DNA of 64,000 nt from an uncultured Candidatus Saccharibacteria bacterium (GCA_964600295.1 CAZRIY010000001.1:91282-155281); one strand, 5' to 3'; counted from the first letter of the stretch, positions 1,132 to 20,563 are shown. The notes: generated from the sequence alone by a model not told the origin. Made by a program: numbers and translations.

Positions 1132-1383
1132 ATCTAGGGGAAGTATATCATAAGCACTCTGCGTATTGCCCCCTGTCGCCTAGAGTCGGCTTTTTTACTT
1201 CTAAATCTATCAAAAAAACCCTTAATTATATAATTAGCGCCATAGCGCGCATAATCTATACAACTTCCTGTCTGATGGCAAAACTTCTCCTTTGGCGGGC
1301 TGAGCCTGGCGATTAAAGAGTAAACCCCGTTAGAGGCCGCCCTATCGAAGGCATGGCTACGACCGCTTTGGGAAGATCTGCTT

Positions 1384-2818: not shown

Positions 2819-3000
2819 AGTAATTACATTGTATATACATTAGCTTCAACTGGCAATTGATCTTAACTGAAGGGAATAAAGGTTAGATGTAAGAGACTCG
2901 GATGTTAAAGCTTTGCGACGATTTGTCCCTTAGCTTAGAAAAGAAATACCCCCGCGACAATCTTTCACGGAGGTAAAATCTACAAACGGTTGTCTAACTA

Positions 3001-3507
3001 CTACCGACTATCGATACAGGAACCTTGGCCGCGCTCCTGGTACGTTACAACCGCGAATTGGCGTGCGGTTCCTGGGGTCCGTGTAAATCCGGTTCCACAT
3101 ATCTGAGCCGGGAAGTAGTACATGGTGCCTGCTGTAGGCGCTGTGATTCCACTAAGCGTAGTGTTAACGTTATAGTTTGTGCCGGTGCCCGGGTCTGCCC
3201 AGGTGGCACCACCTGCCAGCATATACTGCGCACGGAAACCGGTCGCACTTGCATCGTTGTATTGGGCTGCAGTCGGGATATTACCGTTGTTATTGCTGGC
3301 AAATTGGTTAACTGCCGCCAGCGTGCGGCTGGCGTCATTCTTGCGCGCGGTATCGCGCCTCGAAGCCTGAGCAGCGCTAACGGCCACAAAGACGATAACG
3401 AAAATTAGCCCGGCAATGGCCAGGACAATCACGATTTCAATCAGGGTAAAGCCTTGATTGCCATCTTTCTTAAACAGCTTCTGGAACCATTCCTTGAGTT
3501 TTTGCAT
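3001..3507 (-). CDS. pilA: Type IV major pilin (PilA-like)
   Basis: An 18-aa leader precedes G|FTLIEIVIVLAIAGLIF. The protein is 168 aa with a Thr/Gly/Asn-rich C-terminus and two Cys, and it lies between pilC and mazE. Confidence 0.75.
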   Translation of the reverse strand: MQKLKEWFQKLFKKDGNQGFTLIEIVIVLAIAGLIFVIVFVAVSAAQASRRDTARKNDASRTLAAVNQFASNNNGNIPTAAQYNDASATGFRAQYMLAGGATWADPGTGTNYNVNTTLSGITAPTAGTMYYFPAQICGTGFTRTPGTARQFAVVTYQERGQGSCIDSR

Positions 3508-3582
3508 TTGATTCGGTCTCCTCCTAAATTCTATATTGCTTATGTTTAATAATATTAGCCTCTACCCCCAACGTCAACCCCG

Positions 3583-4827
3583 TTATTGAGGCGGCGGCGC
3601 GCCACCACCACTGGCTCCGCCGAGATCGAAGTTGATTAGGCCATAGACTGGCAGTAGGATAGCGGCCACAATGACACCGACAGTAACGCCCAAAAATACC
3701 ATCAATATCGGTTCTATAGTGGTAGACATGTTTTTGGTGGCGTTATCCAACTCCTCTTCATAAAACTGAGCGGTTTTGGACATCATAGCGTCGACAGTGC
3801 CGGACTGTTCACCGATTTTTAGCATTTGGGGTACTAGAGCCAGAAAGGTCGGCTCTACTTCCAGCGCGATCGATAGGGCCTTGCCACCCTTCACTTTGTC
3901 GGCTGCTCTTTGCATGGCTTCATCCAGATGAACATTGTTCATAGAACCCCCTACGATGCGCAGCATCTCCAGCATCGGCAGACCGCTGGCCAGTAACACG
4001 CTGCTGGTGCGGCAAAAACGAGCCATATAGAGCTTTTTGAACAGTTTGCCGAAGAGGGGCAATCGTAACTTTAGCCGATCGGCAATCCGTTTGCCGCCAA
4101 GAGTGCGGAAATAACGTATCAAGGCAATACCACCACCAATTAGGATAATCAGAATCAACCACCAAAAGCTCTTCACAAAGTTGGCCACGGCTAGCAGAAT
4201 GGCGGTCAGAAACGGTAAATCTTTGCCCAAATCCTGATAAAGCTGCGAGATTTGGGGCAGGACTGTGGTTAGCATGAATAGCAGTACCAATGTAATCACT
4301 ACCAAGACAATGACGGGGTAAATCATGGCCCCGCGGATTTTGGAAATTAGCGCGTGGTCTTTTTCCTGTTGATCGGCGATACGAGCTAGCGATTTATCCA
4401 AGCTACCCGAAGCCTCACCGGCGGCAATCAGATTAACATAGATGGTGTTGAAAACTTTGGGATGCTTACCTAAGGCATCGGCTAGCGCCGTGCCGCCTTC
4501 GATGTCGGTAATGACCTGATTAACGATCGTCAGCAGCATTTTATTATCAATTTGTTCGCGGACTGTGCGCAGGCTCTGGGCCAAGGGCAGGCCGGCGTTA
4601 ATCAGAGTGGATAACTGACGGCTGAACAGCACTAGTTGCTTGGCGCCGACCCGATTGGTAATAAAACCAAACATGGCACTACCCTTATCTTTAGGCTCTA
4701 TAGTGATTGGAAACAGATCCTGGCTAATTAAGAGCTTGGCGGCTGAGCTCTCGCTATCGGCTTGGACTTCGGCTTTAACCGTCTGACCATCAAGATTATT
4801 CTTGGCGGTGTAAACAAAGGTAATCAT
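3583..4827 (-). CDS. pilC: Type IV pilus assembly platform protein PilC (GspF family)
   Basis: The 414-aa product has two GspF-type repeats with three TM segments and the typical N-terminal MITFVYTAKN...GQTVKAEV. Confidence 0.9.
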   Translation of the reverse strand: MITFVYTAKNNLDGQTVKAEVQADSESSAAKLLISQDLFPITIEPKDKGSAMFGFITNRVGAKQLVLFSRQLSTLINAGLPLAQSLRTVREQIDNKMLLTIVNQVITDIEGGTALADALGKHPKVFNTIYVNLIAAGEASGSLDKSLARIADQQEKDHALISKIRGAMIYPVIVLVVITLVLLFMLTTVLPQISQLYQDLGKDLPFLTAILLAVANFVKSFWWLILIILIGGGIALIRYFRTLGGKRIADRLKLRLPLFGKLFKKLYMARFCRTSSVLLASGLPMLEMLRIVGGSMNNVHLDEAMQRAADKVKGGKALSIALEVEPTFLALVPQMLKIGEQSGTVDAMMSKTAQFYEEELDNATKNMSTTIEPILMVFLGVTVGVIVAAILLPVYGLINFDLGGASGGGAPPPQ

Positions 4828-4952
4828 TTGATTACCTTTTTAAGATACAAACTACAAGATACAAGTAACAAATTTCCCTTGAGCATGTGGGATGTGGGGT
4901 TTGGTGCCTGGTTGTATCCTTGTTTCTTAGTCATTGTTTCTTGCCCTTCGGG

Positions 4953-6026
4953 CTAGCCTCGCATCAGCCGTTCTAGCTCTTCTAGATCGAGCGCGTAATC
5001 TTTGGCTTCTTCGTAAGTAATAACTCCGCTATGGATGAGGGCCACCAAGGCTCGGTCCATTGATTGCATGCCTTTTTCGGCCCCGGTCTGGATTACCGCA
5101 TCCAGTTGATGAGTTTTGGCCTCGCGGATAATATTGCGCACGGCCGAGGTCACCACCAAAACTTCAGTGGCCGGTACTCGCCCGCCGCCGATCATCGGAA
5201 TCAAGCGCTGGGAGCAAACCCCCTGCAGAATAGAAGCCAATTGAACCCGGATTTGCTGCTGCTGGTGGGGCGGAAAGACATCTACCATGCGGTCGATCGA
5301 TTGGGCAGCCGAATTGGTGTGCAGAGTGGCCAGTACTAAGTGGCCAGTCTCAGCAATGGTAATGGCGGCGGCGATAGTTTCTAGATCACGCATCTCGCCA
5401 ATCAGCACTACGTCGGGGTCTTGGCGGAGGCTAGAACGCAGAGCCGAGGCAAAAGAGTAAGTGTCATAGTGGACTTCGCGCTGGACCACCATGGCTTTTT
5501 TGCTTTTATGGGTATATTCGATGGGATCCTCGATGGTAACAATATGAACGGCTTTTTGGTCATTGATCTTATCGATCATGGCGGCCAGCGTTGTGGATTT
5601 ACCGCTACCGGTAGGACCAGTCACCAGTACCAGACCGCGGGGGTACCCCGTAAAGGTTTCGATGACTTTTGGCAGCTTAAGATCTTCAAGGGTACGAATC
5701 TGGTTGGGAATTAGCCGTAGCGCCGCGGCTAGATTGCCACGTTCGTGGAAAGCGTTGACGCGGAAGCGGGCTTCATCACCAAAGGCAAAGGAAAAGTCGA
5801 ATTCTTTGTCCTTGAGCAGCATTTGTTTTTGCTCTTCGTCCAAAATTGAGAAAATTAGTTGTTCAGCAGTCTCCTCTGTTAGGGCAGGTGAATTCTCGAA
5901 CGGAATGAGCTTACCGTCGACCCGCAGGGTTGGCGGTAAACCGACTTGGAGATGAATATCCGAAGCCTTACGATTAACGACTTGTTCTAATAAAACTTCA
6001 ATCCTAGTTGGTCCGGCAGCTGCCAT
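4953..6026 (-). CDS. pilT: Twitching-motility retraction ATPase PilT
   Basis: The 357-aa product has a Walker A (GPTGSGKSTT), Asp and His boxes and a PilT-length C-terminus. Confidence 0.88.
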   Translation of the reverse strand: MAAAGPTRIEVLLEQVVNRKASDIHLQVGLPPTLRVDGKLIPFENSPALTEETAEQLIFSILDEEQKQMLLKDKEFDFSFAFGDEARFRVNAFHERGNLAAALRLIPNQIRTLEDLKLPKVIETFTGYPRGLVLVTGPTGSGKSTTLAAMIDKINDQKAVHIVTIEDPIEYTHKSKKAMVVQREVHYDTYSFASALRSSLRQDPDVVLIGEMRDLETIAAAITIAETGHLVLATLHTNSAAQSIDRMVDVFPPHQQQQIRVQLASILQGVCSQRLIPMIGGGRVPATEVLVVTSAVRNIIREAKTHQLDAVIQTGAEKGMQSMDRALVALIHSGVITYEEAKDYALDLEELERLMRG

Positions 6027-7798
6027 TACGTCCTCGCGTCCGCCGCTACCCGTTCGACTTCATCTAAGGTCGTAAAACCGGTTAGAGCCTTAAGATAACC
6101 GTCTTCTTGCATGGTTAGCATGCCTTCGGCACGGGCTTGAGCTTCCACCTGACCAGAGGTAGCATGTTGGGTTAATAGTTTTTCTAAGCTATCACTCATA
6201 TTAAAAACCTCGAAGACACCTACTCTGCCGCGGTATCCATTTGGGCATTCTTCACTGTCTTTACCCTTAAATAAAGTATAAGCGTTTTGATCGGACAAGG
6301 GCAAGTTACCGTAGCCATATTCTTTAGCCAGGCGGGGAACATCGGCCTGGTTCTTGGGCAGTAATCTACTAACTTTCTTCTTGATGGCTTGGGTTTGGGT
6401 GGGTGTGCTTTGGAGCGTTTCGTGATCTTTACAGATACGCCTAACCAGACGCTGGGCCATGATAGTATTAACGGTCGAAGCAATCAAAAAGGGTTCTATG
6501 CCCATGTCCAACAAGCGGGGCAAAACACCGGCCGCCGAATTGGTGTGCAAGGTTGAGAGTACCAAATGCCCGGTCAGGGCGGCTTGCACCGCCAAGGTGG
6601 CGGTTTCGTTATCGCGGATCTCACCGACAAGTACGATATCGGGGTCTTGGCGCAAGACCGAGCGCAAACCCGAAGCAAAGGTTAAACCCACCGGCGGATT
6701 AATCTGGATCTGGTTAACACCAGAGATTTTGCGTTCCACTGGATCCTCGAGGGTGACGATATTGATGGTTTCGTCTTTAATCATCTGCAAAATGGTATAG
6801 AGTGTGGATGATTTGCCCGAGCCGGTCGGCCCGGTGGACAGAATCATACCGTGAGGTCGTTTGGAGCCCTCTTGCACCAAGGACAGTGAATGACCGCGCA
6901 AGCCAAGGTCGGCTAGGCTCAGATCCTGATCCTCCTTACTGAGCAGCCGCATCACTACCTGCTCACCCCAGACTACTGGAGATATGGCTACCCTAATATC
7001 AATTTCCTTGCTGGCCGAGGAAATATGGAATTGGCCGTCTTGGGGAACTCGGTGTTCATCAATCTTCATTGCAGACAGAATTTTGACCCGCGATATCAGC
7101 GCCGGTTCGCTGCCTTTGGGTAAGGTCATAATTTCGCGCAACAGGCCGTCGACTCGGACTCGGATGCGAACTTCGTGCTCGGTGGGCTCGATGTGGACAT
7201 CTGAGGCACCGGCCTGGACGGCATAGTCCAAAATGGCCTTGAGCGCCCGGGTAATCGGCGAATCTTGCACCAAGTTGGCTACGGCTTGAGCACTAGTGGT
7301 ACTATCCAAGTCTTTGGGCGTTAAATCGATTCCGCTTATTACGCTGCGCATATCTCCGACATCGGGTTTATAGTGGGCCAGGATACGCTCAATACCGACC
7401 TGGGAGGCCATAAAGACCACAACCGGTCGGCCAATTTTACCGGAAATATAATCAATCGCCTGGATATTGGTAGGATCGAGCATTCCCACCGCCAGCTTGC
7501 CCTCCATATCACCCAATGGTACGGCCTTGTACTGTTGGGCCAAATCTATGGGTAGGGACTTCAAGATCTCCGGTTTGACTGAGGCCTTTTGGAGATTAAC
7601 GTAGGGCACGTTGGTGGCCCTAGCAATCAGCTTGGTTAGCTCCTCGGGATCTATCAGTTTTTTTTCGGTAACTAGGGTCAACAAGGACTTATCGGACTTG
7701 GCGGCCTCGACTTTTAGTTGCTCAAGCTGTGCCTTAGTAACGGCTTTCTTTTCAACCAACCAATCTTCGACTCGGCTCTGGCTCTCGACGGACAGCAC
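6026..7798 (-). CDS. pilB: Type IV pilus extension ATPase PilB (GspE family)
   Basis: The 590-aa product has an N-terminal GSPII_E_N-like domain, a Walker A (GPTGSGKSST) and a tetracysteine region. It uses a GTG start with a GGAGG RBS 9 nt upstream. Confidence 0.9.
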   Translation of the reverse strand: MLSVESQSRVEDWLVEKKAVTKAQLEQLKVEAAKSDKSLLTLVTEKKLIDPEELTKLIARATNVPYVNLQKASVKPEILKSLPIDLAQQYKAVPLGDMEGKLAVGMLDPTNIQAIDYISGKIGRPVVVFMASQVGIERILAHYKPDVGDMRSVISGIDLTPKDLDSTTSAQAVANLVQDSPITRALKAILDYAVQAGASDVHIEPTEHEVRIRVRVDGLLREIMTLPKGSEPALISRVKILSAMKIDEHRVPQDGQFHISSASKEIDIRVAISPVVWGEQVVMRLLSKEDQDLSLADLGLRGHSLSLVQEGSKRPHGMILSTGPTGSGKSSTLYTILQMIKDETINIVTLEDPVERKISGVNQIQINPPVGLTFASGLRSVLRQDPDIVLVGEIRDNETATLAVQAALTGHLVLSTLHTNSAAGVLPRLLDMGIEPFLIASTVNTIMAQRLVRRICKDHETLQSTPTQTQAIKKKVSRLLPKNQADVPRLAKEYGYGNLPLSDQNAYTLFKGKDSEECPNGYRGRVGVFEVFNMSDSLEKLLTQHATSGQVEAQARAEGMLTMQEDGYLKALTGFTTLDEVERVAADART

Positions 7799-7818
7799 CT
7801 AGTCCAAACCTCCAGTTT

Positions 7819-7890
<72 letters not shown>

Positions 7891-7897
7891 TTATGTC

Positions 7898-8164
7898 TTA
7901 TTCGGGGCGGAAAGGATTAGTATTGCCAAAACCCTGACTGAAATCAAAGCTCGGAGAGGAAAAACTGGCGGCTTGGAAACGGTTGTTCCGACCGAGCAGG
8001 ATCTGGCGGGCGGCATCATCAAAATTCGGGTCGATTGGCTGGACAACCTCAATGCTGGCCGTGCGGGCTTTGCCACCGCGGCCAAAACGGCTGACTAGGA
8101 AGGAGCCCAGCGCAACCAGCACAATGCCCAGCACCACTAGAGCCAAAATATCTTTAGTTTTCAT
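7898..8164 (-). CDS. Small membrane-anchored hypothetical protein in the pilus operon (position expected for PilP)
   Basis: The 88-aa product has one N-terminal TM segment (ILALVVLGIVLVALGSFLV). It overlaps the pilO-like stop by 11 nt and is therefore operonic. Confidence 0.4.
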   Translation of the reverse strand: MKTKDILALVVLGIVLVALGSFLVSRFGRGGKARTASIEVVQPIDPNFDDAARQILLGRNNRFQAASFSSPSFDFSQGFGNTNPFRPE

Positions 8165-8789
8165 TTATTTCCTCCGTTTGATCACCAATTTGGGTTAGCG
8201 GCTGCCAATAAGTAGTAAGGGTGACGGATAGGGTTAGCGATGGTTCGCTGCCGCTAAAAGTTAAGGTGTTAAGCCGGATCGGCCGCTTGGAATTCTCCAG
8301 GTTGGTCAGCAGTTGTTGCAACGAGACGTACGTACCGTTGGCGCTTAGCTGAAATACCACCTCTTGGGAGGTGGCTACGCCGCTAGCCATTGGCTGCTCG
8401 CCAGCAACAGCTACTTGAGGGGAGAGCGATTGTAGTTGGACGCCAACTAGCGTGGCGGCGGCTTCTAGTTCGGCTGTCAGCCCTGCGTAATCAGGCGAAT
8501 TCGGTAGCGCCCTAAAGATATCAAAGACCGGCGGACCATTGTCTTCCAGAAACTTAAAGTTCTCCTGAAGTTTGGGTATAGCAGCCACGTTTTCCTCCAG
8601 GGTGTTTTTGGCCGCGTTTTTGCGCGAAATCACCTTATTATTAAAGCCGATATCGCCCAGCCAAGTCTTGGACAGCACAATGCTAATAGCTACCACCAGG
8701 GTGGTCAGGCTCATCAGACCAGCAATTAATCGGTTATTAGTGAGGGTTACTTTGGGATGTAGCAAATGCATCTTCTTCAGCTTAGCCAT
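8154..8789 (-). CDS. pilO: PilO-like pilus assembly protein
   Basis: The 211-aa product has a single N-terminal TM segment followed by a coiled-coil. It sits in the pilM-pilN-pilO position, overlapping the pilN stop. Confidence 0.55.
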   Translation of the reverse strand: MAKLKKMHLLHPKVTLTNNRLIAGLMSLTTLVVAISIVLSKTWLGDIGFNNKVISRKNAAKNTLEENVAAIPKLQENFKFLEDNGPPVFDIFRALPNSPDYAGLTAELEAAATLVGVQLQSLSPQVAVAGEQPMASGVATSQEVVFQLSANGTYVSLQQLLTNLENSKRPIRLNTLTFSGSEPSLTLSVTLTTYWQPLTQIGDQTEEINEN

Positions 8790-9387
8790 TGGGTTCTCCG
8801 TCGATTAGCCTGGCATCAAAGCTGGCCTTGATGGTGAAGTTGACCTCGGAGCCAGACGGTCCACTGGCATTTTCCAGTACCACGCTGGTGAAATAGCCCC
8901 TGATTTGGGGATCATCTTCAACCCGATTGGGATCTTGCAAATCACCAGCAACTAGTAAGGCCCGATAAAGCCTGTCAACTCCGGCATAGCTGGGAGAAAC
9001 TCCGGATAGGGTTAGGCCGCCGCTGGTATCTATTTCGATGTTAGATAACCGGATCTCGGCGGGCAAAACGCTGGGCAAGAAGGCCATTAGCTCTGATACT
9101 ACTAGCCGCTGTTCATAGAGGGATGGCAAAGAGGATAAATGATCTTTAACCGTTAACATGGTGGTGATATTGGGGGTACTCTGCAGTGTGGCTTTGTGCT
9201 GATCAATCCGGTCCTGGGTGCGATTCAGCAATAAGGCTTGGCTGCCTTTGATGGCCAATAACAACACCGGAACGCCGATGGCCACAGCCATAATGATGCT
9301 AGAGATAACAATCGATAACTTGCGGGCGCGTTGGGCGCGCAGACGTACCTGTTTACTGTCTGGTAGCAAGTTTACTTGCTTAACCAT
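8782..9387 (-). CDS. pilN: PilN-like pilus assembly protein
   Basis: The product starts MVKQVNLLPD, the conserved PilN N-terminal motif, then has one TM segment. It lies downstream of pilM. Confidence 0.7.
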   Translation of the reverse strand: MVKQVNLLPDSKQVRLRAQRARKLSIVISSIIMAVAIGVPVLLLAIKGSQALLLNRTQDRIDQHKATLQSTPNITTMLTVKDHLSSLPSLYEQRLVVSELMAFLPSVLPAEIRLSNIEIDTSGGLTLSGVSPSYAGVDRLYRALLVAGDLQDPNRVEDDPQIRGYFTSVVLENASGPSGSEVNFTIKASFDARLIDGEPNG

Positions 9388-9573
9388 GTATCACCTCCCT
9401 GCGGTCGGTGCAATTTCTAATTTCTAAATGGTTCGGCAGGCTCTCCATCCTGAGCACAGGCGAAGGACAAGCACCAATTCCCAATAAACCAACCCCTAAA
9501 CAGTTTGAAATTTGGGATTTTATAAATTGGGATTTGTTTAGGATTTCGGATTTAGACATTAGAGTTTCCTTCA

Positions 9574-10629
9574 TCATTGTCGCTCCCTTAGCGCCAAGCC
9601 GCAAGCTACGGCAAACTGGTTGGACAACTCGGCCAGCTGCCCGGATATGCCGGATCGGCTGCCAATCTTAGCCCACGCATCCCCAATTTCCACCGGCAAA
9701 CCAACGCTGTTGGCCAAATGGGCTGGAAATTCCGGCATCATACCCGCCTTGCCGGTCAATATAATTTTGCTCACTTTGGTGCCTTTGTAATGACCTTCAA
9801 AAAACTTGGTGGATTTATCAATTTCCGACATCAGGGTATCAACGCTTCCCTTGATGGCTTTTCTAACTTGGCTCTCCATCTTTTGAGCTAGACCGAACTT
9901 ATAAACGAATTGGTAGGCCTGATCGGGTTCTAGATTCAGCCCTTGGGCGGCGGCCTTAACAAAATTATTACCGCCGACTGGGATGGAACGAATCATTTTG
10001 AGCGAATGGCCAGCCACTGTTACCAAATCGGTGGCGGTTTCGCCAACGTCCAGCACCGTCACAGCACCGGCTTCTTGGGGTTTAACCAGAGCGCGGGCCA
10101 AAGCGATGGCATCGGGTTCCAGCGCCAAGACCTCTAGATCGGCGGCTTCCAGCACAGCGAGTGTGCGCTCCGACAGACCAATTGGCACGGCTACAATTAG
10201 GACTTCTTGCTGTTTGCCATCTGCGGATTCACCGGCTAGCATCCAGTCCAATTTAACTTTATCTAGCGCCATCGGCACATGCTGTTCGGCTTGGTAGCGA
10301 ATGCCCTTTTCTAGCTCCGAGGGCGCCATTTTGGGTAGACTAATCAATGCCGAGAAAACCTTGGCCGAGGGCAGGCCGGAGACCACATTCTTGGTGGTTA
10401 CCCGGCTATCACTAATGAGTTTTTTGATAGCTTCGACCACCGATTGGCGATCTACTGGGGAATCGCTGGCCATGACTTTGGCTTCCATGGGTACCCAACC
10501 ATAGGTTACCAACTGAGCGCTAGCGCCACTCTTTCTGACTTGAACTAAACGAATACCTGAGGAACCAATATCTAAACCAATTATATTATTGTCGGTTTTA
10601 AACAACGCCATTATCTCCAAGTTTATCAT
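9574..10629 (-). CDS. pilM: Type IV pilus assembly protein PilM (actin-like ATPase fold)
   Basis: The 351-aa product contains IIGLDIGSSGIRLVQV and two actin-like subdomains. A GGAG RBS precedes the start. Confidence 0.85.
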   Translation of the reverse strand: MINLEIMALFKTDNNIIGLDIGSSGIRLVQVRKSGASAQLVTYGWVPMEAKVMASDSPVDRQSVVEAIKKLISDSRVTTKNVVSGLPSAKVFSALISLPKMAPSELEKGIRYQAEQHVPMALDKVKLDWMLAGESADGKQQEVLIVAVPIGLSERTLAVLEAADLEVLALEPDAIALARALVKPQEAGAVTVLDVGETATDLVTVAGHSLKMIRSIPVGGNNFVKAAAQGLNLEPDQAYQFVYKFGLAQKMESQVRKAIKGSVDTLMSEIDKSTKFFEGHYKGTKVSKIILTGKAGMMPEFPAHLANSVGLPVEIGDAWAKIGSRSGISGQLAELSNQFAVACGLALRERQ

Positions 10630-10873: not shown

Positions 10874-11746
10874 TTATAGCGGCTCGCTGTCCAAGTTGGT
10901 CTTTTGCTCAGTTTCCGCCCCTTGGTAGCAATCATTCTGCAGCTGGCTCTCAAGAGAGCTGCATAACACGCGGGCCCTAGCAAGGTCATGCCCGGTATAA
11001 AACATAAGGCCCTCACCCATGGCCTGCAGACACATGCCAATTAAGCTTTGTTCTTGGGTATTTAAGATGCTTTCGCATACTCGAGGAAGCGAAGACTGCA
11101 AATCAGACAGGGATTGTCCAAGGTAATTGTTCATATTTTCCATGAAAACTCCGCCAAGACAGGTCTCCTGATGGAAATCGTCAGGCAACTGTCGGCACAA
11201 CCCTACCACTGACTCGAGTTGGCTGAGCTGGTGTCGCAATAGCCCATGACCGACACCGTGGATGCATTGACGGCGGCGCAGCCAATCCGTTCCAATTGAC
11301 GAACAAAGCTCCGGAACCTCACTAATAATTTGGTCAGTGCTCCTGGTTTCTGCATAGCTCTCCATAACCCCGTGGAAGCAACCTTCGATGCATCCAAGTG
11401 GACAGGTTACAAAGGCTTGGGCAGTATTGTTCCGATATTTTTCAAAATTGGTGTGGCCAACTTGGTGAGCAATCAGATGACAATCATCAACTATATGCTG
11501 TTTGCGAAACTGCTGAGCTTGGGTGATGGCAGCTTCGGCTGAATCCTGCATGGTTAGCTTGGAAAAATACGGCAAGAGGCAGGCTGAACGCTGATATGCT
11601 TGAGCCATTGCCAGGCAATCCGCCGGAATCTCTACTAAGTTATTGTTAGCTTCTTTTTTACCAGTAAAAACCATCCCTATAAGCAAAGTTAATAGTAAGA
11701 GTAATCCTATCCAGATATTCTGTTGCTTATAGAAAGGTCTAATCAT
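10874..11746 (-). CDS. Secreted or membrane-anchored Cys/His-rich protein, paralog A, function unknown
   Basis: An N-terminal TM or signal segment is present. The motifs are CHLIAHQVGH, CPLGCIEGCFHGV, QCIHGVGHGLL and CLGGVFMEN, with the same threefold C..C-[YF]HG repeat as the ORFs at 14892 and 16060. Confidence 0.6.
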   Translation of the reverse strand: MIRPFYKQQNIWIGLLLLLTLLIGMVFTGKKEANNNLVEIPADCLAMAQAYQRSACLLPYFSKLTMQDSAEAAITQAQQFRKQHIVDDCHLIAHQVGHTNFEKYRNNTAQAFVTCPLGCIEGCFHGVMESYAETRSTDQIISEVPELCSSIGTDWLRRRQCIHGVGHGLLRHQLSQLESVVGLCRQLPDDFHQETCLGGVFMENMNNYLGQSLSDLQSSLPRVCESILNTQEQSLIGMCLQAMGEGLMFYTGHDLARARVLCSSLESQLQNDCYQGAETEQKTNLDSEPL

Positions 11747-11775: not shown

Positions 11776-14700
11776 CTAGAACACCGGCGGGCGTTCAGAT
11801 TGAGAACGGATCTGGGTGGTAACGCTACCCAATCCAAGGGGTGGGCGCAACAGTAGTTGGGGTACGTAGTTAACGCACTCGGCTGCTTTGTTGCCCACTG
11901 GGCAATCCACGCCGTCAACTCCGGTGCGTACATCGCCAACCGTGCGGCGAAACTGAAAACTGCTGGCCACCAGGGCTCCTTGGACGGTCAAGGGTTGGCC
12001 GCAAGCGGCAGCACCCACGGCAGTGCCAATAGCTATGCCAGTCGGGTCTTGGCAGGTGTTGATAACGCCGCTGCTGCCCGTGCTGCCAGCATAATAAATA
12101 CCGTAGAGGTTTGTGACTATGGGCGAGATATTGATACCCCCGCGGGAAATTACGCCGAAAGAGGGAATGGTATCCCGCCTGAAAGGAAAGCTAGCTGAGA
12201 TATTGCCAACAATTTGTACCGTACCCCCCACTACGAACGTAGTTCTTTTTCCAACTGGTAGGATGCCGCCTAAAATCGTCAGATCACCGTTATATTTGAA
12301 GATACCATCAGGTAGACTGGGGTCGCTAAGATTAACTACACCTGGCGCTGCGAATGGACCTGGATAATCGGCTACAGTGCTGTCAGGAGCGAGGTAGCGG
12401 GCAGCCAGATCCAGTCGGCAGACGCGGCCATAGCCGCCGTGGGGCGAGCTGCGACTGCCAAATTTTAGGCTCAAATCAGTAGGTGAAGTTACAGAGCCGG
12501 CGGAACCAAAGTTATTGATATTGGCCCCGGCTGAAACTACAAAGCTGGCCCTGGAGCCGCGTAGGTCTTGGACACGGCCGCGGACGCTACCGCTACCGGG
12601 GACCAGGCAGGGTGCGCCAAAGTTGGCCCCGGCTTGGACGCTGCCACCCAGGGTGGATAGAACCGGTTTGCGAGAGATTACTACTTTTAGGCACCGAGGT
12701 GTAGGGTCTATGTATTCGGCATTGCTATCGCTATTAGGACTGGCAAAGGCCTGAAAGCAAATGGCCCCAATGTCATCGGAGTCTACAGCGCCATTGAAGT
12801 TGCTATCTAAATAGGTAGGGGCCGTAGGGCTGACGGTAAAGGTGAAAGACACATCTCTTCTACCGCCCGCGGGTAAGTCCGGATAGTGCCAGTGATAACA
12901 AGGGGCCCTGGGGCCACAATCTAGATTATAACCAAAGCTATCGGCCGGCGGCGAAGAAGTGTTGTTGGGTGTCAATGGTGCGGTGGTATACGCGCTGTTT
13001 TGATTCTGCACCCGTAAATACACCGGTAGAGAAGTTGATGCTCCTAAATTTTCTAGCCGTGCATTTATGGTGTAGGGGTTGCCCGGCTCCACCGTGGTAA
13101 AGATGGTTGAGCCATTGGGCGCCAGTCCTTCGGGCAATACATCGCCCTGATTATCAAACGGGGGTGGTAGGGGTGTGGGATAAGCATAGGGTGTGCCGTA
13201 GGCATAGGGTGTGCCGTAGGCATAGGGTGTGCCGTAGGGATAGGGTGTGCCGTAGGGATAGGGTGTGCCGTAGGCATAGGGTGTGCCGTAGACAATGGGT
13301 TCCAGAAAAATGCGGTCTTTGACATTAGGATCCCCATAATTCTCTGACTGGTAAGCACCAAAATAGCTAGAAAAATACGCACCCAGATCATCAATCGACC
13401 TGGTGCGACCGTTTTCGAGTGGTAGATTGCGATAAGCTATAGAATTAAAATTTGGCGCACCGATATCGAAATTCCAGGTAACAAAGCAGTTTAAGCCAGT
13501 GCCGCCGGCATTACCGGAAGGTTCTCCCACCTTAAACCAGTTTGCACTGCGATAGATAGCAGCACCATATTTGCCGCAGGGGTCCGTATTACCTGGAGGT
13601 GGCCCACCTTGATTCGGCGTAACCCAAAAATCATAGATCGCTGGATTTGGCCATACGCCGCTACCAACCCACGCGGTTACGGCCGCCATGGGGTGCTGCG
13701 TACAATGGTCGGGCCCGTGAGTAGCTTTAACTTTGGCTGGCAGCCAAAAGCTCTGCAGCTTGCTTGAGATCTGCTTGAAGATGCGGCTGGTTGTTCGCAG
13801 GGCCTGCCCAACTAATTCCTTGGCTGCCTTTTGTCGCTCTTGGACTAGATATTCCTTTATATAAATTTTGGTGGTCTTTTCCTTTTTGACTGATTCTAGA
13901 AAACCCCTCCAATCTGAATATTGTCCGGTTGTCTTTGCAAGTAACCGGTAAATGGCGTAATAGCCACCGTCGGAGCGAATTAACCCTGTGTGAGAACCAA
14001 TTTCTTGAAGCTGGGCCATTTTTTCCCATTCCTTCATATCCATTAAGTGCAGCGCGGCAGTCTTGGCATTCATACCGGTATCGCCTACCCTATCTACCAC
14101 AAACGAACTCGATTGAGGATCTTTTTGAATCTGCTCAATCTTGCGCGTTATTTCGTCTTGAGAGGCACCATTCTCAAATAGCGGCAGCAGGTCGGATTCC
14201 ACTTTTTGTTTGGCTACAGAATCCCATTCGTCATCGGGATGGGCATCGGAAGCACGCATATCCCATCGGACATAAACACCAAAAAGCGAGCGGCTATCGA
14301 TTAGCACGCTTTCTAACTTGACTCTGAATAGTTGGCTGCGCTCGATGCGCTTTATCAACGCGGCGTCCCAATTCCGACCACTCTGTAAATTAACCTTGGC
14401 CAGGAAAGCGGCTTCGTTGCCGTCGGCCTTGATTAATTCCTGGTAGCGTTGTTCAACTTCTTCGGTGCTAACCGCAATCCCATGTTTAGTGGCTTCATCC
14501 TCTAGAGCCTTTTCCATAATCAGGAAATCTAGAGCATGGAGGTTCAGGGCGAAGAATGGACCGGTATCCTGGTCGTCTTCGGTGCCGGCCAAAAAGCTAA
14601 GTTTAGGCTTGAAGGCTTCATATTCGGCCACGGTAATCTCTTTGCCTCGAACCTCGGCCGCGATCCCGGCTCTCAGTTTGGGGTTCGTAAAGAAATTGCT

Positions 14701-14832
14701 AAGACGAGGCAAAACTGTGTAAGTTGAAAAAATTAGAGCCGCTAATGCCAGGACAAAAATAGCTGCAATAATTCCCAGGCGTAATGGGTAGGCAAGCTTG
14801 CTAAATTTTACCCTTAGTTTTGAAGGCCGCAT
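11776..14832 (-). CDS. Large surface protein with a SurA/PpiD-like N-terminal chaperone-like region, a (YGTPY[AP])n repeat and Cys-containing beta-rich C-terminal domains
   Basis: The 1018-aa product has an N-terminal signal-anchor. Residues ~60-350 are alpha-helical and resemble the SurA N-terminus. The central and C-terminal parts are Gly/Asn/Ser/Thr-rich with paired Cys. Confidence 0.65.
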   Translation of the reverse strand: MRPSKLRVKFSKLAYPLRLGIIAAIFVLALAALIFSTYTVLPRLSNFFTNPKLRAGIAAEVRGKEITVAEYEAFKPKLSFLAGTEDDQDTGPFFALNLHALDFLIMEKALEDEATKHGIAVSTEEVEQRYQELIKADGNEAAFLAKVNLQSGRNWDAALIKRIERSQLFRVKLESVLIDSRSLFGVYVRWDMRASDAHPDDEWDSVAKQKVESDLLPLFENGASQDEITRKIEQIQKDPQSSSFVVDRVGDTGMNAKTAALHLMDMKEWEKMAQLQEIGSHTGLIRSDGGYYAIYRLLAKTTGQYSDWRGFLESVKKEKTTKIYIKEYLVQERQKAAKELVGQALRTTSRIFKQISSKLQSFWLPAKVKATHGPDHCTQHPMAAVTAWVGSGVWPNPAIYDFWVTPNQGGPPPGNTDPCGKYGAAIYRSANWFKVGEPSGNAGGTGLNCFVTWNFDIGAPNFNSIAYRNLPLENGRTRSIDDLGAYFSSYFGAYQSENYGDPNVKDRIFLEPIVYGTPYAYGTPYPYGTPYPYGTPYAYGTPYAYGTPYAYPTPLPPPFDNQGDVLPEGLAPNGSTIFTTVEPGNPYTINARLENLGASTSLPVYLRVQNQNSAYTTAPLTPNNTSSPPADSFGYNLDCGPRAPCYHWHYPDLPAGGRRDVSFTFTVSPTAPTYLDSNFNGAVDSDDIGAICFQAFASPNSDSNAEYIDPTPRCLKVVISRKPVLSTLGGSVQAGANFGAPCLVPGSGSVRGRVQDLRGSRASFVVSAGANINNFGSAGSVTSPTDLSLKFGSRSSPHGGYGRVCRLDLAARYLAPDSTVADYPGPFAAPGVVNLSDPSLPDGIFKYNGDLTILGGILPVGKRTTFVVGGTVQIVGNISASFPFRRDTIPSFGVISRGGINISPIVTNLYGIYYAGSTGSSGVINTCQDPTGIAIGTAVGAAACGQPLTVQGALVASSFQFRRTVGDVRTGVDGVDCPVGNKAAECVNYVPQLLLRPPLGLGSVTTQIRSQSERPPVF
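13184..13291. repeat. Near-perfect 18-bp tandem repeat (6 units) inside the surface-protein gene
   Basis: The unit GCATAGGGTGTGCCGTAG (variant GGATAGGGTGTGCCGTAG) is repeated six times and encodes YGTPYA/YGTPYP on the minus strand. Confidence 0.9.
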
Positions 14833-14891: not shown

Positions 14892-16046
14892 TCAGCCACC
14901 GAACCTTTTGCAAGGCTGGCGTTGGTTGGCATCAGCTTCATGAATGCGATCACAGGCTGCTTGCTGCTCTTCTTGGCTAGTTGTGTAAATCGAAATAACC
15001 GCGCTTAAGTGTTGATAACACTTCGACTTGTCTAAATCCGTAAGTTGAGCGCACATCTCATATGGCATTGATCGGTCACCCACCGAAAAGGCCGCTTTTA
15101 CGATAGTTATGTAACAAAAGACACGCCAATCCGCCGGTAGGTTATCGCACAGGCTAATGACTTTGGGTGTCTGGTTTTCTGTTAACGGGTGGATTTGGTT
15201 CGATAAACCATAAAAACAACTTTCTTTATCAACTTCAGGCGCAACTCCCAGACAGATCTGGCCAATTTTTACTAGATCACCGAAGTAACGTTGATATAAT
15301 ATTTGCGGCTGATTGTTCCAACAAGGCTTGGTGTATTCGGGTTTTAGACGCGTGTCATTGCAGGGATAGCTATCATCACCCGGTTTAACCCATCTGTCTG
15401 GTGAGGGCGCTCCGCTATGCAATCCCCAAACGTTTTCCATAAAGGCGCCGTCGAGACAGTTGTAGAGGGGAAAGCTGGGAATATTTGCACCCAATTTGTC
15501 GCATTGTTCAAGCCCCTTAGTTAGGTTGGCATAGCCAACAGCCGCCACATAACCGTGGCCAATACCGTGGGCACAGGAAAGCGGTACTCCCGGTCCTTCC
15601 TTTTGACAATGTTCGATAATTTTCTTGATATCAACCATGTCATTATCGGCTTCGCCGGAAATAACGTGCAGCAGCAGACCGTGGTAACAAGATTCCAAAA
15701 AATAAGTGCGGCAGAGCGTAATACCCTCCACGCCGTGTTTCTCATATATATAATCCCCGGCTGTATGATTTAACAGATGCGTTTCACCAGTAAAGGGCAA
15801 GCCGGAGCGAAATAGTTGCTCTTGGGCTTCAACCGGTCCTACGCGTTCTAAAAGTAGCCGGTAAAATTTTATCCGCTCCTGTTTGTTGTTGGTTGCCAAA
15901 ATATTTTGAATTTCCTGGCTGGTACCCTGTCCTGATTGTTCTGGCTGAAGCCTTACCCACATATTTAGACCGATAATTACAGCGATTAGCGCCAAGATAA
16001 CGCCTAATTGCCACCTATATTTAAGTGCCTGCTTTATGACGCCCAT
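14892..16046 (-). CDS. Secreted Cys/His-rich protein, paralog B, function unknown
   Basis: The motifs are HLLNHTAGDYIY, CRTYFLESCYHGL, SCAHGIGHGYV and NCLDGAFMENV. The ORF table starts it at 16085, overlapping the upstream gene. An ATG at 16044-16046 has a GGTGA RBS and leaves 13 nt after the upstream TAA, so 16046 is the preferred start. Confidence 0.55.
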   Translation of the reverse strand: MGVIKQALKYRWQLGVILALIAVIIGLNMWVRLQPEQSGQGTSQEIQNILATNNKQERIKFYRLLLERVGPVEAQEQLFRSGLPFTGETHLLNHTAGDYIYEKHGVEGITLCRTYFLESCYHGLLLHVISGEADNDMVDIKKIIEHCQKEGPGVPLSCAHGIGHGYVAAVGYANLTKGLEQCDKLGANIPSFPLYNCLDGAFMENVWGLHSGAPSPDRWVKPGDDSYPCNDTRLKPEYTKPCWNNQPQILYQRYFGDLVKIGQICLGVAPEVDKESCFYGLSNQIHPLTENQTPKVISLCDNLPADWRVFCYITIVKAAFSVGDRSMPYEMCAQLTDLDKSKCYQHLSAVISIYTTSQEEQQAACDRIHEADANQRQPCKRFGG

Positions 16047-16059
16047 TGTACTTTTCACC

Positions 16060-17568
16060 TTATCTACCCTCCCGGCTCTTAACAATATCGACTATTCGGA
16101 GGCATTCGATAACCTTGTCCTCTTGGTTGATTGCCCGGCATATCTTTTGTGCATTATCCCACCAACCATTATAGGCTTGGAAGACTATAGCATCCGCCGC
16201 CTCGGTTAAGCACCATTCGTTCCCCTGCTGGTACGGAGATGATTGGCATAAATTGATAATTGAATCGGTATTTTCTTTACTCGCCCCACCGGCTTGTGAA
16301 CCAGTGCCACGGAAGCAATGCTCTTCTAATATTGGAGCTGGAGCTTGAGAACAAAGCTTGATACTTTGGGTTAAATCGTGGCCGATGGATTGCAGCCTAA
16401 TGGGCTGCCAACGGCCGCAAGCCTCATGATAAATGGAGCTTAATTCCCGACAGAGTTTCCATGAGTCGTTGGCATCTACTGCGGTTGCGCCGAGCGACGT
16501 GGCTTGTTCCATAAATACCCCATCATAGCAATATTTTCGATGCTCTGGTTTCATCCGATCGCAGGCGACTAGCGCGGGTTTGAGCTCAAGGTTGTGTATA
16601 GTTAGTACCCCATGGCCAACACCGTGGTAACAGCTAGGTGCCTGGTCGGCTGGCAACGCTTTGGTACAAGCCTGTTCAATTTCCGTTACAGCTCTTTCGC
16701 CAAGACCGTTTATAGCCTCCTCTGATACGCCATGATAACAGCCATAGGCGAACTCTCTATCGCAAATTTCGACACCCGAGACACCTGATCTGCGGTAGGC
16801 GGCATTGCCAACTATGTGGGCAAGTTCGTGGCCATTTGCGATAGCTTGGTCCTCCACCAGAAAGGCTTTTTTTAGATACTCCCACGCTCCTCTTGGATTC
16901 TGTTGAGCGTATGTTTGCAGTAAATCGAGTTGTCCTTTATAGTCCAGGCTTCGAAATTCCTCGATCGGCGGGAGATTTTTTTTACCAATTTTTGGCAACC
17001 AATTTCCAAATGCTGACCATAACCTCCCAAACATTCCATGTTTGGTTCCGCCAACCTCTATGACCATGATGTGCCCTGGTGACAGGTGATCGTGCATTCC
17101 CCAGCTGCCGAGTTTCTCAAATTTAAAACTGTAGGTTTCGGCCGGTTTTAGATTGCGGCAAGCATCCAATTGGCTGCCTAAGCAGCCCTTCTCATCGGAA
17201 GGATAGACGGTGTGGGTGGGATGATTGTTAGAAGCTGGCCAGACCTCAGACTTTGATTGGTTAGTAAAGACCACGGTTTGCCCGGGTTTAATGGCCAGCC
17301 TGTTGGGTCTAAAGCCGTCGTCGGTCATAGCCACCGCTACTGAACCATCTGGCCGCAATGAATCTTGATGGGACCAGCCCACAATTAGCACTCCGCCCAA
17401 CATAATTAGACCAATGAGCAGCTTGAGTTTGGACAGTCGCCCCAACCGACTCTTTATTTTAACCCTCAATCTTGACCACACATAAGTAATTCTAAAGAAA
17501 GTGGTTAGTGACTTACAACCATCTACTGTTTGATACTGGTGAACTCCTTTGTTTTGTCGGCGCCCCAA
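16060..17568 (-). CDS. Membrane-anchored cupredoxin-like domain fused to a Cys/His-rich domain (paralog C, with HExxH)
   Basis: A TM segment spans residues ~47-65. Residues ~82-172 read IKPGQTVVFTN...HPTH...ETYSFKFEKLGSWGMHDHLSPGHIMVIEV, a cupredoxin-like pattern. The remaining motifs are GHELAHIVGNAAY, CDREFAYGCYHGV, SCYHGVGHGVL and YCYDGVFMEQ. Which Met is the true start is uncertain. Confidence 0.55.
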   Translation of the reverse strand: MGRRQNKGVHQYQTVDGCKSLTTFFRITYVWSRLRVKIKSRLGRLSKLKLLIGLIMLGGVLIVGWSHQDSLRPDGSVAVAMTDDGFRPNRLAIKPGQTVVFTNQSKSEVWPASNNHPTHTVYPSDEKGCLGSQLDACRNLKPAETYSFKFEKLGSWGMHDHLSPGHIMVIEVGGTKHGMFGRLWSAFGNWLPKIGKKNLPPIEEFRSLDYKGQLDLLQTYAQQNPRGAWEYLKKAFLVEDQAIANGHELAHIVGNAAYRRSGVSGVEICDREFAYGCYHGVSEEAINGLGERAVTEIEQACTKALPADQAPSCYHGVGHGVLTIHNLELKPALVACDRMKPEHRKYCYDGVFMEQATSLGATAVDANDSWKLCRELSSIYHEACGRWQPIRLQSIGHDLTQSIKLCSQAPAPILEEHCFRGTGSQAGGASKENTDSIINLCQSSPYQQGNEWCLTEAADAIVFQAYNGWWDNAQKICRAINQEDKVIECLRIVDIVKSREGR

Positions 17569-17976: not shown

Positions 17977-19665
17977 TTGAGCATGAATATTCTAGGGATA
18001 TCGGCTTTTTTCCACGATAGTGCGGCGGCTTTGATAGTAGATGGCCGAGTGGTATGTGCCTTTGAGGAAGAACGCTTTAGCCGCATCAAACACGACAATC
18101 AATTCCCGGTATTAAGTATCCAGCACTGTCTCGATACTGGAGGCCTCTCAGTCAATGATATCGACAGCGTTGTCTATTATGAGAAACCTTTACTAAAGTT
18201 AGAACGCATTTTAGATACCTTTATTCAAACATTTCCTCGTTCGTTGCGCCCATTTGTGGCAAATATGCCCGAAATATTAATTCATAAACTCGACATCGCC
18301 TACACTTTACGCAAAACGATTGGGTTCAGAGGCCAGATATTCTATCTCCCGCACCACTTGTCTCACGCTGCGGCTGCTTTTCTAACATCATCATTTAAAG
18401 AGTCCGCGATATTGACAGTAGATGGTACGGGCGAGTACCAAACAACTGCTCTGTGGGCCGGCAACTCTAGGAGAATAACTGAGCTAGGGTCACTAAATTT
18501 TCCCCATTCTTTGGGTTTGTTCTACTCGACTTTCACTGCTTTTTTGGGCTTTCGGGTTAATGACGACGAGTATAAAGTTATGGGCCTGTCGGCTTACGGT
18601 AAGCCAAGTTTTGTATCCGATATGCGGAGGCTAATAGACATGGCGGCAGACGGTAGCCTGCGTCTCAATATGGACTACTTTGGATTCCAACACTCGGAGC
18701 AAATGTGGGCCCCGGCTTTTGAAAAACTGTTTGGTAGAGCCCGCGCGCGCGGCGACCCAATGACTAAACACCATAAAGATATAGCGGCTAGCGTTCAGGC
18801 TCTGTTTGAGGAGATATATTTTCGAATTCTTAACCATCTCCAGACCCTTACCAACAGCTCCGACCTCTGCCTGGGGGGTGGGGTGGCCTTAAATGCACTA
18901 GCCAATGGCAAAATCTATACTCATACAAAATTCAAACGTGTACACATATTCGGAGCAGCTGGCGATAGTGGTTCGGCGATTGGAGCGGCACTCTACATGT
19001 ATCACCAATTAAATCAGTCCGGCTGGCCGAAGCCAATTACTGGCATGGCGTTGGGGTCAAGTTACAAAGACGCCGAGATTGAAGACTGCTTAGGACAAAC
19101 CCAGCTTAAGTGGGAAAGGGTAGCTCCGAAAAAACTCATTGCCAAAACCGCACAACTCTTGGCGAACGGCAAGGTAGTAGGATGGTTTCAAGGCAAGATG
19201 GAGTTCGGGCCACGCGCACTTGGGTATCGCTCAATCCTGGCAGACCCGCGGCCAGCAGCCATGAAGTCAAAGATTAATAGGATTAAGGGCCGCGAAGCAT
19301 TCCGCCCATTCGGGGGATCCATTATAGATACTGCGACGAATTTATACCTCGAAGCTCCCGGGGGCCTAGTATCACCTTTTATGATTGAGTGTTTCAGAGT
19401 TCGAAGTGCAAAAAAAGATAGTCTGGCTGCGATCACACACTATGATGGCAGTTGCCGCATCCAAACCGTTACGCCCCAAAACGAACGATTTTATCAGTTA
19501 ATCAACGCGTTTAGAGATTTAACTGGTACACCTTGTTTGCTCAATACCAGCTTTAATGTTGCCGGGGAGCCGATGGTAGAACATCCCAGCCAAGCCCTGG
19601 AAGTCTTTGCAACTACGACTTTGGATTATCTCGTAATCGGAAATTTTATGGTGCGCAAGGAATAA
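17977..19665 (+). CDS. Carbamoyltransferase (NodU/CmcH family)
   Basis: The N-terminus is MSMNILGISAFFHDSAAALIVDGRVVCAFEEERFSRIKHDNQFP. The 562-aa product has a Kae1/TsaD-like N-domain and a carbamoyltransferase C-domain. Confidence 0.85.
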   Translation: MSMNILGISAFFHDSAAALIVDGRVVCAFEEERFSRIKHDNQFPVLSIQHCLDTGGLSVNDIDSVVYYEKPLLKLERILDTFIQTFPRSLRPFVANMPEILIHKLDIAYTLRKTIGFRGQIFYLPHHLSHAAAAFLTSSFKESAILTVDGTGEYQTTALWAGNSRRITELGSLNFPHSLGLFYSTFTAFLGFRVNDDEYKVMGLSAYGKPSFVSDMRRLIDMAADGSLRLNMDYFGFQHSEQMWAPAFEKLFGRARARGDPMTKHHKDIAASVQALFEEIYFRILNHLQTLTNSSDLCLGGGVALNALANGKIYTHTKFKRVHIFGAAGDSGSAIGAALYMYHQLNQSGWPKPITGMALGSSYKDAEIEDCLGQTQLKWERVAPKKLIAKTAQLLANGKVVGWFQGKMEFGPRALGYRSILADPRPAAMKSKINRIKGREAFRPFGGSIIDTATNLYLEAPGGLVSPFMIECFRVRSAKKDSLAAITHYDGSCRIQTVTPQNERFYQLINAFRDLTGTPCLLNTSFNVAGEPMVEHPSQALEVFATTTLDYLVIGNFMVRKE

Positions 19666-20563
19666 GCTTTTGGGCAATTAGGTAATCCGCCATTTCTCTG
19701 GCAATGATTTCGTGACCCCGAGTGTTTGGGTGGCCGTCACCCTGAATGATTCCTCCGGAATCATTCAGGCTATCCTGGGATAGTTCGTAATAATAGGTTT
19801 GCGAACGGCCGTCGGCAAAGCTCTTGGCATATTGCTCCAAATTAGAAGCGCGTATATCAAACATTACTAAAGGCTGATTAAAATACTGGCTGGCCGCATG
19901 GAGTGTTTGTGTCTGAAACTGAATATTATCTGCCATAGAATATATATGAGGAGTTTCTTCCGAATCGTCGTGTGATTCTTGGTGATCTTTAAACGGGCGT
20001 GATTGATGATCGCGATCAATTTCGGCTCTTGTCACGAAATCGCTGTCATTAACTTGCCATATGACTAAATCGGGCTTATATTTTTGGCCGCGAAGCCGGT
20101 AGCGTTCAGCGCTATAAGCGATGTCGTAGCCGGGTACACCAAGATTGATGACTTCATATTTAGTAGCGCCCCGACAGGTATAGTTCAACAACTCCGCCAG
20201 TCGTTCTGAATAATTCTCGTTAGCACCTACGTATAAGCCAAAGGTGATTGAATCCCCAAGGCTGATGATTCTGAAGGTGTTGGCTGGTTTCACAACCGTA
20301 TAATCCTGTTGGGCATGCAGACTATCGGCATTGATGCGATACCTAAGATCGCGAACCTCTTTTTGGCCTGTAGCTTGATCGCTATTCGCCTGCAACTCAT
20401 AAAAATTAGCGAACTGGGAACTAGATGCGCTGGCCACGCTAGTTCTGGATATCGGGCTAACGCTTATGTGGGTCTGAAAACTATAATAGGCGTGTATCAC
20501 CAGCAGGGCGACAACAATCACCTCGAGGATAAAAATGTATCCTGTCAGCTCCGGTTTGCGCAT
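19646..20563 (-). CDS. SGNH/GDSL hydrolase family protein with an N-terminal TM anchor
   Basis: Block I is ISLGDSITFG, block III is VNDSD, and block V is DGHPNTRGH. Confidence 0.75.
   Translation of the reverse strand: MRKPELTGYIFILEVIVVALLVIHAYYSFQTHISVSPISRTSVASASSSQFANFYELQANSDQATGQKEVRDLRYRINADSLHAQQDYTVVKPANTFRIISLGDSITFGLYVGANENYSERLAELLNYTCRGATKYEVINLGVPGYDIAYSAERYRLRGQKYKPDLVIWQVNDSDFVTRAEIDRDHQSRPFKDHQESHDDSEETPHIYSMADNIQFQTQTLHAASQYFNQPLVMFDIRASNLEQYAKSFADGRSQTYYYELSQDSLNDSGGIIQGDGHPNTRGHEIIAREMADYLIAQKLIPCAP

Follow-up and report, generated by a model that had tools for sequence, protein, structure and literature searches.

The window analysed here is a stretch of 64,000 nucleotides from an uncultured Candidatus Saccharibacteria bacterium (GCA_964600295.1, CAZRIY010000001.1:91282-155281). 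The gene under study is an open reading frame (ORF) on its minus strand, at 16060-17568, which encodes 502 amino acids (aa) when read from the first TTG and specifies a two-module protein, designated N-C, in which a cupredoxin-fold domain of the WPAS-HPTH...HDH subfamily (the HDH family) precedes a C-terminal Cys/His-rich module. Homologues of this protein have the same architecture and comprise 421-512 aa, and the gene caller used on an identical public contig places the start at TTG 17445, giving 461 aa. Judging from this gene call and the homologue lengths, TTG 17445 (461 aa) or TTG 17469 (469 aa), both on the minus strand, is likely to be the real start, and the true start codon is probably internal to the 502-aa ORF, leaving the cupredoxin domain unaffected. 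A scan for promoters and terminators gave counts not above shuffled expectation and is uninformative on the start site.

According to the AlphaFold2 (AF2) model, the N-C protein consists of a membrane anchor, a beta domain of ~100 aa, a low-confidence linker, and a helical module of ~300 aa, in this order. The N-terminal hydrophobic helix, LKLLIGLIMLGGVLIVGW (17374-17427, minus strand), is a membrane anchor or signal anchor by sequence reading, AF2, and homologues; AF2 extends a helix across residues 6-35 of the trimmed protein, and all homologues carry a short basic stretch at the N-terminus followed by one hydrophobic segment. The cupredoxin-fold domain, delimited by profile, AF2, and Foldseek, occupies ORF residues 78-172 (17053-17337, minus strand). 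Translation of 17053-17325 on the minus strand gives TDDGFRPNRLAIKPGQTVVFTNQSKSEVWPASNNHPTHTVYPSDEKGCLGSQLDACRNLKPAETYSFKFEKLGSWGMHDHLSPGHIMVIEV, corresponding to residues 82-172 of the ORF and identical to the residues quoted in the first-pass annotation. The all-alpha Cys/His-rich module, delimited by AF2 and alignments, is encoded at 16063-16962 on the same strand. Since the protein has an N-terminal transmembrane anchor and paired cysteines, it is likely to be membrane-anchored and extracytoplasmic, in keeping with the cell-surface location proposed earlier.

The earlier proposal of a cupredoxin-like domain is also borne out and, on the evidence of structural models, the flagged domain is a genuine cupredoxin fold. 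Taken alone, the window protein reaches the gathering cutoff of neither PF13473 nor PF00127: it is sub-threshold for PF13473 (E 0.0022, 18.5 bits, cutoff 27), has no match to PF00127 at E<=1, and matches the plastocyanin model TIGR02656 weakly. Among the 51 full-length homologues, 21 match PF13473 (best E 2.7e-7), and four match PF00127 weakly; some relatives exceed the PF13473 cutoff (e.g., P0118 at 29.3 bits). A PDB search with alignment A2, a profile built from 45 homologous domains, matched amicyanin over full length (E 5.2e-6) and also returned 5FC9, plastocyanins, and NirK-like proteins in their cupredoxin domains. The AF2 model of the isolated domain, with a predicted local distance difference test (pLDDT) score of 88.2 (88-90 across models) and a predicted template modelling (TM) score of 0.80, displays the Greek-key beta-sandwich of cupredoxins. 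Foldseek comparison of this model with the PDB returned 5FC9 first (E 3.6e-8, TM 0.73, probability 1.0), followed by plastocyanins, amicyanins, and 4HCF, the top matches being cupredoxins only. This fold rules out two other readings of the HxH motif, namely a Cu,Zn-superoxide dismutase and a cupin.

The type-1 copper site, on the other hand, has been dismantled. The closest homologue of the N-C protein (51% identity) is encoded in a Saccharibacteria metagenome-assembled genome (L001/L003), where a canonical membrane-anchored type-1 cupredoxin of 151 aa, with the motif ...TQH...YYCSPHPYMKG, lies directly upstream of it (L001 9518-9973, the same as in L003). This canonical cupredoxin aligns with the hidden Markov model of the Cys-less family without gaps over 96 positions, so that the ligand register is fixed, with profile positions 33, 84, 87, and 90 falling on its His, Cys, His, and Met. 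In the window protein, these positions are held by Val109 (N-terminal His ligand; His in 55% of the 266 domains compared), Asp160 (Cys ligand; Asp in 95% and Asn in 5%), Ser163 (C-terminal His ligand; N, F, Y, or S among the domains), and His166 (Met ligand; L, F, M, or I). The amicyanin alignment agrees with this register, since Asp160 falls on the ligand Cys92. Met168, which has the spacing of the plastocyanin Met (profile position 92), is Met in only 37% of the 266 relatives. Thus, the domain has no Cys thiolate in the beta7-beta8 loop, lacks the pair of His ligands (one after beta3 and one 2-4 residues past the Cys), and has no axial Met, Gln, or Leu. The first-pass annotation was right that the canonical Cys is absent, but the residue that replaces it is specifically an Asp, or occasionally an Asn, and not a His/Met-rich loop, in which H166 is variable and M168 poorly kept; nor is the HPTH motif the equivalent of the N-terminal type-1 His, whose place is taken by Val109. 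Because the Cys, His, and Met ligand positions are all replaced, a type-1 blue-copper site is excluded at the level of sequence for the whole HDH family, and its members could not serve as blue-copper electron carriers. Moreover, the ungapped fit of the canonical L001 cupredoxin to the Cys-less profile suggests that the HDH family descended from an amicyanin/plastocyanin-like protein.

A different set of residues has become fixed in the place of the lost ligands. The conservation figures refer to the same 266 distinct domains, which were chosen by the presence of H83 and H85 (domain numbering; H159 and H161 in the ORF), so that these two residues are fixed by construction; alignments A1 and A2, which were not selected in this way, nevertheless also show both as invariant. 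The remaining positions are W34 (99%; ORF W110), P35 and A36 (98% each), S37 (94%), H40 (99%; H116), P41 (98%), H43 (99.6%; H119), Y46 (95%; Y122), D59 (99%; D135), G78 (99.6%), W80 (91%), and P88 (87%). In the window, the main motifs lie on the minus strand: the H116-P-T-H119 motif (17212-17223), preceded by W110-P-A-S and followed by Y122-P; the C129...D135-A-C137 hairpin (17158-17184), as defined in the alignment of the 266 domains; and H159-D160-H161 (17086-17094), with D160 at the type-1 Cys position. Cys53 and Cys61 (C129 and C137) occur together in 71% of the domains and probably form a disulfide, the remaining domains lacking the hairpin by deletion. Within the loop GMHDHLSPGHIM, H159, D160, H161, and P164 are the only conserved residues.

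In HMMER alignments, the HDH triplet falls on the H-C-H of 9CCK (lhDhlsP on YHCHAFP), of ascorbate oxidase (1AOZ, residues 494-520), and of a two-domain multicopper oxidase (MCO; 3G5W). The profile picked up 324 instances of the domain in 200 proteins: 177 show the full HH|HDH pattern, 6 show HH|HNH, and the rest belong to tandem arrays of the canonical type with Cys; stand-alone and tandem domains retain the full signature of the family. In a mean-field direct coupling analysis of the 266 domains, columns coupled through indels prevailed, and no usable loop-loop contacts emerged. Taken together, the alignments indicate that the constellation of W110, H116, H119, Y122, D135, H159, D160, and H161 is near-invariant from bacteria to archaea.

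The C-terminal module is no less conserved. In the AF2 model, it is all-alpha, with seven Cys pairs spaced at a period of ~35 aa, one pair per repeat in roughly seven repeats. Its invariant residues (H247, H251, H279, H315, H319, D349, M353, and E354 in ORF numbering) follow the pattern HxxxH...H...HxxxH...D..ME, which is 100% conserved in 120 C-only proteins, that is, paralogs without the cupredoxin domain. No relative of this module was found in Pfam, NCBIfam, or the PDB, and it appears to be a separate, uncharacterised fold with a metal-binding or catalytic role. An HExxH zincin assignment for its HELAH segment was rejected, given that Q, T, G, or D may stand for the Glu among N-C proteins, that Leu takes its place in 117 of the 120 C-only proteins, and that no Pfam peptidase model matches. 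The fusion of both modules, described in the first-pass annotation, is kept in about 100 of the 200 proteins examined; it had been taken to point the whole paralog family towards copper or another metal, or a redox function. However, an invariant His cluster is present also in the paralogs that lack the N-domain, so that any metal function in the paralog family does not depend on the cupredoxin fusion. The N- and C-modules are functionally linked, because they are fused in several orders, C-only genes lie adjacent to N-C genes, and split clusters of N-only and C-only genes also occur among related loci, each module keeping its own invariant site independently.

On the minus strand of the window, the N-C gene is followed, after a gap of 13 nucleotides (nt), by a C-only paralog of 384 aa (14892-16046), a surface-type protein of 1018 aa (11776-14832), a short C-only paralog of 290 aa identified by ORF and homology (10874-11746), and then pilus genes. 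The 1018-aa protein, which thus stands between two C-only paralogs, has a SurA_N-like N-terminus and seven YGTPY(A/P) repeats (13165-13290, minus strand), encoded by an 18-bp DNA tandem repeat at 13184-13291. Two alternative-frame ORFs that overlap this tandem repeat, 13065-13394 on the minus strand and 13107-13322 on the plus strand, have repetitive products (PTAHPM... and HRVCRR...) and are almost certainly not genes but artefacts of reading the repeat in other frames. Immediately downstream of the paralog cluster and in the same direction, a complete type IV pilus set extends over 490-10629 (minus strand), with pilM, pilN, pilO, pilB, pilT, pilC, a pilin gene, pilD, and a second pilin gene in this order (the pilins of N_methyl type, pilD encoding the prepilin peptidase). 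In the closest relative, L001, the order N-C, C-only ... pilM ... pilB is the same.

On the other side, a NodU/CmcH-type carbamoyltransferase gene (17977-19665, plus strand; Carbam_trans_N/C) diverges from the N-C gene and is followed on the opposite strand by a gene for a GDSL-like lipase/acylhydrolase (19646-20563, minus strand). Both enzymes are possibly envelope-modifying, and the carbamoyltransferase gene adjoins the N-C gene also on the identical public contig (L083). Copper-homeostasis genes, for which the first-pass annotation proposed a search elsewhere in the genome, were not found among about 50 ORFs scanned in the 64-kb window, whose remaining content is housekeeping genes and the type IV pilus genes.

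About half of the 82 related loci compared have one or more C-only genes next to the N-C gene. In 30 of the 82, an ORF of 800-1800 aa with extreme Tyr/Pro/Thr repeats is found near a gene of the family (among them L010, L015, L020-L024, L026, L027, L033, L040, L042, L043, L045, L046, L053, L056, and L069). The repeats are of the types YYTPP, YPTPSY, and SYGTP, with 50-110 motifs and contents of about 14% Tyr and about 16% Pro; the N-terminal parts of these proteins differ, the repeat being their shared feature. Most of the repeat ORFs are located on the same strand and less than 400 nt from an N-C or C-only gene, about 20 of them just upstream of the N-C gene, at a gap of -19 to +153 nt; for a few, the distance is 0.7-4.5 kb, and one has the opposite orientation. 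The 1018-aa protein of the window, with its seven YGTPY(A/P) repeats, is a weaker counterpart. Because the repeat ORFs recur beside N-C or C-only genes, the Tyr/Pro-rich proteins are suggested to be partners or substrates of the family, and they represent the strongest functional lead.

The HDH family is large and widespread. An exhaustive profile search across 1.84 billion representatives gave 9475 matches at E<=1e-3, 3825 at E<=1e-10, and 180 at E<=1e-30; the top 150 matches are mostly of HDH type, and the 180 clusters at E<=1e-30 include a few canonical cupredoxin arrays. In GTDB species genomes, at least 530 loci were found, distributed over Patescibacteria (Saccharibacteria, Paceibacterota, Microgenomates, and others), DPANN archaea (e.g., Aenigmatarchaeota CP066684), and Chloroflexota (Dehalococcoidia and Limnocylindrales). 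The 200 proteins whose architecture was examined include 92 with N-C, 39 with N alone, 27 with another module followed by N (X-N), 6 with N-C-C, 4 with N-N, 2 with N-C-N-C (P0061 and P0063), 1 with C-C-N-N (P0062), and 1 with C-N; in P0072 (946 aa), an N-C protein is joined to a homologue of the C-only gene at 14892-16046 of the window. In other extracellular proteins, the HDH domain stands at the extreme C-terminus (P0114, P0122, P0125, P0144, and P0157, which are X-N, as well as P0118 and P0074), the X modules including a long DUF5667 coiled-coil with a Kazal-type inhibitor domain, a PEBP-family module, and four Fn3 domains with PG_binding. No dedicated Pfam or NCBIfam model for the HDH domain was found, and a literature search covering CPR/Saccharibacteria cupredoxins (CPR, candidate phyla radiation), Cys-less cupredoxins, and Tyr-rich CPR repeats retrieved nothing specific on the family. 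The family consists of natural Cys-to-Asp cupredoxins with four new invariant His residues, and no structure, biochemical study, or curated model was found for it.

The place of the new constellation can be read against known copper proteins. In MCOs and nitrite reductases, the His neighbours of the type-1 Cys face away from the type-1 copper and serve as ligands of type-2/3 copper. In plastocyanin, Tyr83, which stands just before the Cys, is located on the 'remote' face and is ringed by residues 42-45 and 59-61; by alignment, these are roughly the positions of H116/H119 and D135 in the window protein. H159 and H161 would, therefore, flank the lost Cys in the manner of the H-C-H histidines that bind type-2/3 copper, and H116, H119, H159, and H161, with D135 nearby, probably form one site on the face beside the lost Cys. 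That these residues meet in one place is proposed because of the alignments to plastocyanin, amicyanin, and MCO/nitrite reductase-type domains and the known structures of these proteins. The putative site would be self-contained and non-blue (type-2-like), with three to four His ligands for copper or another divalent ion, and D160 would act as a second-shell or auxiliary residue behind it, consistent with the occasional Asn at this position. At the cell surface, the cupredoxin domain would work jointly with the helical module rich in Cys and His, and the adjacently encoded Tyr/Pro-rich repeat proteins would be candidate partners or substrates. The best explanation of the analysis, to which we give a probability of roughly 0.58, is thus a membrane-anchored two-module protein with a dismantled type-1 site, a predicted non-blue metal site, and a surface role exerted together with the C-module.

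Several observations weigh against this explanation. The spatial clustering of the histidines is deduced from homology alone and metal binding is predicted, and the HPTH loop is the part with the lowest confidence in both AF2 models (block pLDDT about 61-78). The Asn found instead of D160 in 5% of the relatives speaks against D160 as a direct ligand. Neither copper-handling nor respiratory genes were found among the ~50 ORFs scanned in the 64-kb window, and the canonical cupredoxin neighbour occurs in only 1 of the 82 loci and is absent from the window. The promiscuous fusions with Kazal, PEBP, Fn3/PG-binding, and DUF5667 modules would fit a binding module as well. Moreover, many of the hosts are thought to be anaerobic fermenters, in which copper oxidase chemistry is not expected.

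A less likely alternative would make the domain a metal-free structural, adhesion, or ligand-binding module, a degenerate cupredoxin recruited as a scaffold outside the cell, with invariant His, Asp, Tyr, and Trp residues that bind a partner protein, carbohydrate, or peptide. It is compatible with the loss of the type-1 site, with the shuffling of the domain among extracellular architectures (DUF5667 with Kazal, PEBP, Fn3 with PG_binding, and the C-module), with the Tyr/Pro-rich repeat proteins encoded adjacently, and with the type IV pilus cluster downstream, and a surface patch rich in Trp, Tyr, and His is also typical of carbohydrate- or peptide-binding sites. However, four invariant His and two Asp residues in more than 260 divergent bacterial and archaeal sequences are what usually marks a metal or catalytic centre, the H-x-H pair stands exactly at the copper-binding place of related domains, and Cu2+ binding is retained in the Cys-less cupredoxins examined to date (FtrB).

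A non-redox function, in which the domain would capture or chaperone Zn, Ni, Cu, or Fe on the surface of a symbiont with a reduced genome and the C-module would be a second metal-binding unit, also seems improbable. The His-rich invariant sets of both modules, the surface location, and the lack of redox partners in the window would suit such a function, but no transporter gene is consistently adjacent in the 82 loci, where Tyr/Pro-rich repeat proteins and C-only paralogs, and not permeases, form the conserved neighbourhood.

A more far-reaching version, which must be regarded as speculative and rather a long shot, would make the N-C proteins and C-only paralogs an extracellular metallo-oxidase system, so far unrecognised, in Patescibacteria, DPANN archaea, and Chloroflexota. 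Such a system would modify or cross-link the neighbouring Tyr/Pro-rich repeat proteins (e.g., through dityrosine or dihydroxyphenylalanine, DOPA), and its Cys-less cupredoxin would carry a self-contained His3-4 copper site at the place used for type-2/3 copper in MCOs and nitrite reductases. A single-domain stage has long been postulated for the evolution of multicopper proteins and, if this version were true, the family would offer a living example or a relic of it.

Finally, the reading as an ordinary type-1 blue-copper electron carrier, shuttling electrons to a partner such as NirK, is invited by the amicyanin/plastocyanin fold and strand pattern, by the name 'plastocyanin' that the Joint Genome Institute (JGI) gives to several family members, and by the proposal of CPR 'putative cupredoxins' as NirK electron donors (PMC5581439), but it is already refuted by the sequences. 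No family member has the thiolate ligand (Asp 95%, Asn 5%), conservation is lacking at the C-terminal His and Met positions, the N-terminal His is Val here, and no nirK or respiratory genes were found in the window. Labels such as 'plastocyanin' and 'cupredoxin', which homologues bear, have been used for NirK electron routes in CPR genomes, a job that HDH-family members would be unable to do.

The domain, the seven-Cys-pair helical module, and the Tyr/Pro-rich repeat proteins constitute a recurrent cell-surface gene set, which in the present Saccharibacteria-like genome lies directly upstream of type IV pilus genes. This set provides a testable handle on the envelope chemistry of ultra-small symbionts, whose surface proteins are almost entirely unknown.

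Among known systems, amicyanin and plastocyanin (PF00127) are set apart from the window domain by its Asp in place of the Cys, its Val in place of the N-terminal His, and its unconserved C-terminal His and Met positions, and they lack the invariant WPAS, HPTH, Y, D, and HDH of the window family, whose member here is also membrane-anchored and fused to a 300-aa helical module. The purple cupredoxin Nmar_1307 (5FC9), with 14-17% identity, is a type-1 copper protein according to its PDB title, whereas the window domain has no Cys ligand. The window protein likewise falls below the cutoff of PF13473 (Cupredoxin_1), which is exemplified by a Bacillus anthracis protein solved with Cu or Zn (4HCF/4HCG). 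In MCO and copper nitrite reductase domains, His residues flank the type-1 Cys position as they do in HDH, but the window family lacks the Cys itself and, thus, the H-C-H motif. We take the H-P-x-H of the window family to resemble the first four positions of the H-P-x-H-x-H motif of MCOs. A partner cupredoxin that would contribute the HxHG and HxH ligands, as in MCOs and nitrite reductases, was not seen: the protein has a single cupredoxin domain and is otherwise all-alpha, and the window yielded no other cupredoxin ORF. FtrB (Cup-II, 8VUK) and EfeO's N-terminal domain (Cup-I, 7WGU) show 12-16% identity and no sequence-level match; the FtrB motif consists of a Cu site, D118/H121, and an Fe site, E84/E86/E93, and appears to differ from the HPTH...D...HDH of the window family, and neither FtrACD nor EfeUB iron-transporter genes were found in the window or among the recurrent neighbours of the 82 loci. 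Nevertheless, FtrB is a Cys-less cupredoxin that binds Cu2+ via Asp and His and oxidises Fe2+ (PMC11966278), and it provides a precedent for metal binding by a cupredoxin without the Cys.

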